From Eremomyces bilateralis CBS 781.70 (lineage: Eukaryota): a DNA stretch of 64,000 nt. Shown here piece by piece: positions 3,767 to 4,871 of the stretch. Each line of letters starts with the position of its first letter. The stretch's first letter is position 1. The DNA lies in assembly GCA_010015585.1 (NCBI GenBank), contig ML975152.1; one strand, written 5' to 3'. The position numbers were made by a program, and so were the translations under genes. The notes beneath the pieces are model-generated. The model did not search any database. It worked only from the letters and a program-made list of their open reading frames with translations, and had not been told where the DNA came from.

Positions 3767-4871
3767 TTAGCGTGGAGCGTCCAGCGTGGAATCCGGAATA
3801 TGCGTCGGGTTGAACGGCACCTGACACATAATGCTCGTGAAGCAGCGAAATGCCGAGATTCGACACCATATTACCGCACTGCATACGAATTGGGTGCAGC
3901 CTAAATCGTCACCACCTTTCTATGAAGGAAGAGGTTAGCTCGAGAATCATCCGGAAGGGATAGGGTACGACGGCAACACGAGAGGTAACTTACGCGCATG
4001 CAACCCTCATGAAGGACATTGCAGATTTTGCAATATTCTGGCTCATCCGGTGGTGGAGCTGCTACTTCTGCTCGCTTGACAGTGTCCGGGATGCTGTGCA
4101 GAATGTAGGCCCCCTCGTATCCGCATGTGTGATGCGTGTCTGAAGAGTACGGAGAAGAAAAGCATGCCTTTTTAGAGTATTCATAGGAACTGCTACTTTT
4201 CTGTTGGAACATTATACAACATTAGTGATCCTCCCACTCGGAATTCTTCTGAGGGGTGGAGGAAGGACTTACGGCAAAGCAAGCCTTGTAGACCTCATCG
4301 CACATTCCGCAAAGGGCGCGATCAACTCGAGGCTCCGCGGCACTGACGGTAGAGGTTCCCATAGAGGCATCGGAGGCATCGGAGTCAGTGGGGCTTGGGT
4401 TGAGAGATCGCTTCTCGTGAGCCTCTTGGATAGCCCGTGTGCCTTGATTTCCTTCCTCCGTTTCCCGGCACGCCCAGGAATATCCACAACCATAGCGCTG
4501 TTTTCCACAGATCTCCTTGTCAGACTGACATGCATATCCGGAGCAGATCAGGGAGTCACGCCACCGCTGTTGAAGCGGTCAGCAATCGTGCTCCCGGTTA
4601 ATGAATAGGGATATATGGAGAAAACGCCCAGAACACTGGGTTCATGGTGTTCAAACGCTGGATATCTTTAACTTACTTCCCAACATTTGTAATATGCATC
4701 GTCGCATTTCTTGCAGTATATTGGGTGAGGATAGTCACGACGTTCCAAGGCACCTGGCTGAAGCCCCAGAGGTTCCCAGGCGGGGTTGAGAATACCTCCT
4801 TTAGTGTCGTCGACGGGTACCGCGAACACCACCGCGGAGAGGAGAACTGGGAGAATTCGGAGAAACCGCAT
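3767..4871 (-). CDS. Secreted Cys-rich repeat precursor (282 aa) with three Kex2-delimited 8-Cys modules
   Basis: Exons 4871-4677, 4566-4273, 4200-3994 and 3919-3767, joined by three phase-0 GTAAGT...YAG introns with branch sites, give an open frame. Signal peptide MRFLRILPVLLSAVVFA; ERR/EKR/VKR sites; repeated CxxCx6C pattern. Confidence 0.88.

Follow-up and report, generated by a model that had tools for sequence, protein, structure and literature searches.

The window analysed here is a stretch of 64,000 nucleotides from the ascomycete Eremomyces bilateralis, and its minus strand carries a real, transcribed gene of four exons (CDS 4871..3767; Table 1). The gene model was obtained from the reverse-strand reading together with the stop-to-stop frames, and its spliced product of 282 amino acids is letter-identical to the hypothetical protein P152DRAFT_447203 [Eremomyces bilateralis CBS 781.70]. 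The lengths of all four exons are divisible by three; introns 1–3 are therefore in phase 0, which makes both internal exons (2 and 3) phase 0-0. Each intron includes a branch-like CTGAC, CTAAT or CTAAC located 15–25 nt upstream of the acceptor. On the minus strand, the span 3920–4676 opens with the first base of intron 1 and closes with the final one of intron 3, and the exon-exon joins at the three introns are GAA/CGG, GCC/AAA and CGC/AAA (a slash marks the join). The sequence-only reading from which this analysis started had stated that all three introns are in phase 0, begin with GTAAGT and are positioned two codons past the third Cys of a Cys-rich module, directly after CWE, CFA and CMR, respectively. 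Each part of this description was checked on the sequence and is correct. GTAAGT is the donor consensus of fungi in general, and the shared start carries no added weight. Both the G+C content of the window (about 50–60%) and the shortness of the introns fit a filamentous ascomycete.

Table 1. Coordinates of the gene, of its candidate processing sites and of neighbouring open reading frames in the 64,000-nucleotide window
Feature	Position	Strand	Description
O-methyltransferase-domain ORF	197-835	+	PF00891, E 6e-23
MFS transporter ORF	952-2547	-	PF07690, E 1e-26
3' untranslated stretch	3710..3766	-	Shares an RNA contig with exons 2-4
Exon 4	3767..3919	-	153 nt, 50 codons + TAA; module 3 C-half (5 Cys), short tail
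Intron 3	3920..3993	-	74 nt, phase 0, GTAAGT..TAG; RNA depth inside 0
Exon 3	3994..4200	-	207 nt, 69 codons, phase 0-0; apparently decayed module 2 C-half (2 Cys), Pro-rich linker, module 3 N-half
Candidate Kex2 site 3	4072..4077	-	KR, residues 205-206, T-V-K-R/A; between modules 2 and 3
Intron 2	4201..4272	-	72 nt, phase 0, GTAAGT..CAG; RNA depth inside 0
Exon 2	4273..4566	-	294 nt, 98 codons, phase 0-0; module 1 C-half (5 Cys), Ser/Asp/Thr-rich linker, module 2 N-half
Candidate Kex2 site 2	4408..4413	-	KR, residues 117-118, H-E-K-R/S; between modules 1 and 2
Intron 1	4567..4676	-	110 nt, phase 0, GTAAGT..CAG
Exon 1	4677..4871	-	195 nt, 65 codons; start ATG 4871-4869; pro-region, module 1 N-half (C-x2-C-x6-C-W-E)
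Candidate Kex2 site 1	4737..4742	-	RR, residues 44-45, A-L-E-R-R/D; end of pro-region, Leu at P4
Putative signal peptide (exon 1)	4818-4871	-	Residues ~1-18
CAF17/aminomethyltransferase-like ORF	12010-13428	+	Weak Pfam match near the cut-off
Zn2Cys6 transcription-factor ORF	14641-16992	-	Weak Pfam match near the cut-off

Among the neighbouring genes, the O-methyltransferase and MFS transporter pair at the edge of the window may mark the border of a secondary-metabolite cluster situated beyond it. The CAF17-like and Zn2Cys6 reading frames look like ordinary neighbours.

The N-terminus of the protein, MRFLRILPVLLSAVVFA/VP, has a basic start, a hydrophobic core (mean Kyte-Doolittle hydrophobicity of 2.8 across residues 6–18) and small residues at positions -3 and -1, and a hydrophobic C-terminal tail is absent. 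Both the signal peptide and the absence of a membrane anchor were judged by inspection and hydrophobicity, not by a predictor, and we infer that the 282-residue product is secreted. Behind the hydrophobic N-terminus and a Cys-free stretch, the primary structure includes 21 Cys residues in three groups, which form three tandem modules of the pattern C-x2-C-x6-C-x9-C-x4-C-x5/6-C-x6-C-x5-C. Module 1 (Cys 53–98) and module 3 (Cys 220–264) contain 8 Cys each, with spacings of 2,6,9,4,6,6,5 and 2,6,9,4,5,6,5, respectively, i.e., with a single difference among the seven spacings. Module 2 (Cys 151–189) has 5 Cys; it keeps the C-x2-C-x6-C of the N-half, and its C-half is down to 2 Cys. From this comparison module 2 appears to have decayed from the 8-Cys pattern. 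The linkers between the modules are of low complexity, one Ser/Asp/Thr-rich and the other Pro-rich. A single-sequence AlphaFold2 model of the protein was unusable (mean pLDDT 43.6, pTM 0.25).

The RNA data consist of one public run (X1), available as contigs; its RNA label is a guess, and we treated it as RNA, without DNA carry-over at the locus, because its contigs are spliced and depth is zero in introns 2 and 3. The run contains 84% of the sampled words from positions 3600–5000. Its contigs skip exactly the three intron intervals of Table 1 (CT..AC on the plus strand, corresponding to GT..AG on the minus strand), which confirms the splice sites that had been read from the sequence for all three introns. 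The joints are 3919>3994, 4200>4273 and 4566>4677, and all three are constitutive. A 711-nt contig is composed of 3710–3919, 3994–4200 and 4273–4566, that is, of the 3' untranslated stretch and exons 4, 3 and 2, and exon 1 is covered by an RNA contig as well (4677–5000). The run may be the source data for the gene annotation, in which case the gene model and the RNA are not fully independent.

Introns 1–3 are removed constitutively, and the sole variant seen in the run is the retention of intron 1. It is present in a 170-nt contig (4537–4706) with a word depth of 48.9, and the spliced junction of the same intron is present in a 60-nt contig with a depth of 47.3; the two values sum to about the depth of exons 2–4 (93.7). 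About every second transcript in the library therefore retains intron 1, word depth in contigs being a poor measure of abundance. In the retained form translation would meet a stop after two intron codons (GTA AGT TAA). It is conceivable that this retention is a regulated switch, in which about half of the transcripts are made unproductive and protein output is gated. Retained and spliced depths of 48.9 and 47.3, with introns 2 and 3 at 0, speak against DNA carry-over as the source of the retained form, and an excerpt of PMC9118705 reports that in other fungi intron retention coupled to decay controls genes for secreted enzymes. However, the data come from one run and one condition, the depth of contig words measures abundance poorly, and retention is, in the excerpted part of a survey of fungi (PMC3925392), the most frequent form of splicing noise. 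We consider a regulated switch unlikely.

Two other features of the RNA contigs were observed at the ends of the gene. An 888-nt contig begins at the border of exon 1 and intron 1 (4677) and extends upstream beyond position 5000; if colinear with the DNA, it would reach to ~5564, about 690 nt past the ATG. Its depth of 158.6 exceeds the 93.7 of exons 2–4, and inspection by eye found no convincing open reading frame in its upstream stretch. It represents a long leader or else a transcript that overlaps the gene. At the other end, the contig graph forks at 3710, directly ahead of a GTAAGT at 3709–3704 and 57 nt past the stop codon. Two contigs continue from the fork with about 30 loose letters, and another continues unspliced to 3600. 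The loose letters had no match in the window with up to 3 mismatches allowed. The fork may reflect an intron in the 3' untranslated region that is joined to an exon outside of the window, or a chimeric contig.

Based on sequence searches, the protein appears to be an orphan, with no detectable relative in the databases searched. An exhaustive phmmer search with the 282-residue protein against 1.84 billion representatives returned one match, the protein itself; a word-indexed protein search with exon 2 again found only this protein, and a word search with residues 45–104 among shorter proteins gave zero candidates. With the whole protein, at E values up to 10, neither a Pfam family nor a PDB sequence was matched. 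When the four exons were compared with Pfam, the sole match was of exon 3 to Creatininase, and was rejected as sub-threshold (E value 0.088; 12.6 bits vs a cut-off of 31.3). In the ESM Atlas, the lead 'Pathogenicity protein family' (102 aa, Ascomycota) reached 0.76 with the whole protein, which is below the usable level, and module 1 alone had no usable match; the structure rows are meaningless at a model pLDDT of 0.48. The search for paralogues covered protein collections and the 64,000-nt window, in which tblastn found no second copy of the protein (best other match E value 0.99). A scan of metagenomes gave 24 stretches that fit a pattern, one of which passed tblastn. This locus (L001) is on a bacterial contig, where the matches are off-frame to the long reading frames and include a stop, and it was rejected as a chance match selected by the pattern. 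Its positions 67–90 and 854–1021 resemble two of the six patterns of 8 residues used in the scan (7/8 and 8/8 residues), its reading frames are an AraC-like one, named by eye from the translation, and one of 506 aa on the minus strand, and the stop is contained in one of the look-alike alignments. Matches seeded by a pattern can thus look persuasive.

The position of the introns had also led the sequence-only reading to suggest that the gene grew by tandem duplication of a unit which already contained an intron. This suggestion is supported by the likeness of the modules over shuffles and by the same place and phase of their introns. Modules 1 and 3 are the most alike (z 6.7; 0/2000 shuffles reach the score), followed by modules 1 and 2 (z 5.1; 1/2000 shuffles) and modules 2 and 3 (z 3.0; 24/2000 shuffles), and the alignment of exon 2 with exon 3 has a z of 3.4 (2/1000 shuffles). 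According to a rough estimate, with ~50 codons and three phases per module, two further introns would fall at the same site by chance about once in 20,000 cases. The best reading, and one that we regard as well supported by the sequence, is that a unit already bearing an intron was duplicated in frame within the gene, which grew in this way. The ancestral segment would have held an intron within its Cys module, and in-frame duplication would have led to the three modules. Since the duplicated segment carried the intron inside the module, all modules are interrupted at one codon and in one phase, and for the same reason each internal exon is composed of the back half of one module, a linker, and the front half of the following module. 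The duplication would be old, since the introns are dissimilar (z of 0.0, 1.7 and -0.6 for the three pairs against shuffles, with nothing common beyond the splice signals) and the identity of the coding DNA of the module halves is 0.37–0.55 (counted over ungapped nucleotides; the N-halves give this same range). In the non-Cys codons of the N-halves, modules 2 and 3 share 24/51, and the remaining pairs 14/51 and 17/51; modules 1 and 2 have a common C-G-Y motif in the C-half. Both observations would suit an exon 3 copied from exon 2, but they are only suggestive.

The introns could also have come to their common place with no intron-bearing unit being duplicated: an intronless module would first have been triplicated and introns then inserted three times at one site, or the segments would not be homologous. 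In favour of this, the introns are dissimilar apart from their splice signals, and the C-halves of the modules taken alone are not significantly similar (z 0.9–1.2; the score is reached in 264–389 of 2000 shuffles). Nevertheless, three insertions at one codon and in one phase would be required, and the exon ends GAA/CGG, GCC/AAA and CGC/AAA differ from the AG/G type of proto-splice site. Modules 1 and 3, moreover, agree in six of seven Cys spacings, and whole modules exceed shuffles. We regard an origin of either kind as highly improbable. Homology of the modules is supported jointly by the N-half motif, by the Cys spacing of modules 1 and 3 and by the place of the intron.

A further proposal had been made from the phase of the exons, namely that skipping of exon 2 and/or exon 3 would keep the frame and, by joining the N-half of a module with the C-half of another, would diversify the product in a combinatorial manner. 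The arithmetic is right, and every skipped form is in frame and open: 184 aa with 13 Cys are left without exon 2, 213 aa with 16 Cys without exon 3, and 115 aa with 8 Cys when exons 1 and 4 are joined alone. The diversification itself finds no backing, since joints of exons 1-3, 1-4 or 2-4 are absent from the contigs of the run (one run, and contigs show presence and can miss rare isoforms) and the literature is also against it. In the excerpt of a comparison of 23 fungi (PMC3925392), skipped exons account for 3% of alternative-splicing events vs 61% for intron retention. What could be said for skipping in some transcripts, and for the limited combinatorial range of secreted proteins that would result, is that the frame is kept, that contigs may overlook rare isoforms, and that the loss of exon 3, or of exons 2 and 3, leaves only complete 8-Cys chimeric modules and an even number of Cys, unlike the full form with its 21 Cys. 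The introns, however, are 72–110 nt in length with consensus signals, i.e., a setting of intron definition, in which failed recognition of an intron leads to retention and not to skipping, and the variant actually observed at the locus is the retention of intron 1. Skipping in some transcripts is very improbable. We assign an equally slight chance to the idea that, in conditions other than those of the run, exon 3 or exons 2 and 3 are skipped, so that the decayed half-module is lost and proteins of two modules (213 aa) or one (115 aa) are made, composed of complete 8-Cys chimeric modules alone. If true, this would be a splicing route to a varied set of secreted mini-proteins in a fungus, and such variation would be layered on the release of modules by Kex2. 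The constitutive removal of the introns instead means that the message encodes all three modules and that they are made together, with retention of intron 1 as the only variant, one that truncates the reading frame.

The protein contains exactly three KR/RR dipeptides, one in the linker ahead of each module and none in the Cys cores (Table 1). Kex2, according to an excerpt of PMC8528282, requires Arg at P1 together with Lys or Arg at P2, and its preference for P4 is Leu or a different aliphatic residue. Site 1 agrees fully with this preference, and sites 2 and 3, with His and Thr respectively, agree at P1 and P2 only. The distance from the site to the first Cys of the module is uneven (about 8, 33 and 14 residues). 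Cleavage in silico gives four fragments, a pro-peptide and mini-proteins of about 73, 88 and 76 aa, of which the middle one (module 2) would hold an odd number of Cys, 5. Kex2, a Golgi protease, would in this way cut ahead of each module and free a pro-peptide and three separate disulfide-rich mini-proteins, for which extracellular binding or an antimicrobial role is our guess. In a test devised post hoc, the arrangement with one site per linker was found in 0.5% of 20,000 shuffles with Cys fixed. It is almost an even chance, on the other hand, that the protein acts intact, its three modules being secreted together, and that the KR/RR dipeptides are incidental and uncut. By count alone, at least three KR/RR are present in 20% of the Cys-fixed shuffles, sites 2 and 3 are without the preferred aliphatic P4, and the odd Cys of module 2 would be unpaired after cleavage, where in the intact chain there is one free Cys in 21. 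The odd Cys number is somewhat against processing, or else is a sign of the decay of the module. What an incidental origin of the sites leaves less well explained is their placement, one per linker ahead of a module with the cores free of sites, at 0.5% of shuffles, and the low complexity of the linkers, which would make them accessible to a protease. Cleavage by Kex2 at the three sites is accordingly proposed here as tentative, at somewhat less than even odds.

The whole explanation, a duplicated-module orphan gene with constitutive splicing and a secreted product from which Kex2 may release modules, has in our estimate a probability of roughly 0.75. The gene is an orphan within a well-known type, namely lineage-restricted repeat proteins, secreted and cysteine-rich, which have grown by internal duplication, and the locus opens no long-standing question. 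It offers an RNA-verified case of the growth of a small secreted cysteine-rich protein, in which the duplication took the intron along, so that exon borders are out of register with module borders, and the orphan protein contributes an undescribed 8-Cys module to the secreted mini-proteins of fungi.

The nearest analogue in gene structure is found in the Ly6/uPAR (LU) proteins, such as uPAR, and is an analogy of architecture only. As described in an excerpt of PMC6600238, the LU domain is a disulfide-rich domain which starts with C-x2-C, has an intron at a fixed loop inside, and keeps this pattern in each domain that is added. The E. bilateralis protein likewise has a small domain that starts with C-x2-C, is split at a fixed intron place and appears to have been repeated through internal duplication. 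The same excerpt (PMC6600238) describes LU domains, which are widespread in Metazoa, as encoded by two exons each, with flanking introns of phase 1 between the domains. Here, in contrast, the intron within the module is in phase 0 and introns between modules are absent, and the modules have 8 Cys, as opposed to 10, and no CC doublet. The LU profile was not matched in Pfam by the whole protein at E values up to 10. Membership in the LU family was considered and is ruled out by the lack of a profile match, the 8 Cys, the phase 0 and the absence of introns between domains.

Precursors of the ustiloxin-like dikaritin type, which are ribosomally synthesized peptides (RiPPs), carry many short, near-identical cores between Kex2 sites, and UstYa/DUF3328 genes are located nearby. 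The repeats of the protein studied here are, unlike these cores, long Cys-rich modules, and DUF3328 was found in none of 12 neighbouring reading frames of at least 110 aa between 1 and 17 kb. The O-methyltransferase and the MFS transporter do lie at 197–2547, on the side where the window stops ~3.8 kb past the gene. On these features an ustiloxin-type RiPP precursor seems unlikely. At the N-terminus there is a resemblance to the K2PP effectors of fungal plant pathogens (e.g., SnTox3), which in an excerpt of PMC8528282 are described as having a pro-domain processed by Kex2 and one mature domain. The E. bilateralis protein shares with them a signal peptide followed by a Cys-free pro-region of ~27 residues which ends in L-x-R-R before the first Cys-rich domain; it differs in that two further dibasic sites and modules follow the first domain.

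By architecture, the nearest described class would be the fungal KEPs, or Kex2-processed repeat proteins (Le Marquer et al. 2019, PMC6339444; Umemura 2020, PMC7329392), whose defining features the sequence has on paper. These features, in the excerpt of PMC6339444, are a signal peptide, at least three repeats, KR/RR (or KK) between the repeats and at least four fragments in silico. Typical KEP repeats are short and near-identical, whereas those of the E. bilateralis protein are long, disulfide-rich and diverged, with one of them decayed, and the conserved KEP peptide families have no match here, no homologue having been found. Like the KEPs, the protein has an N-terminal signal peptide (by inspection) and no membrane anchor, and it has three internal repeats (z 6.7, 5.1 and 3.0), although far more diverged than is typical of KEPs. 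The dibasic KR/RR at residues 44–45, 117–118 and 205–206 are positioned between the repeats and predict four fragments, and the repeat size between sites (~70–90 aa) is within the 3–352 aa given for KEP repeats in the excerpt (PMC6339444). If processing by Kex2 were confirmed, the KEPs would come to include folded, disulfide-rich domains alongside short peptides.
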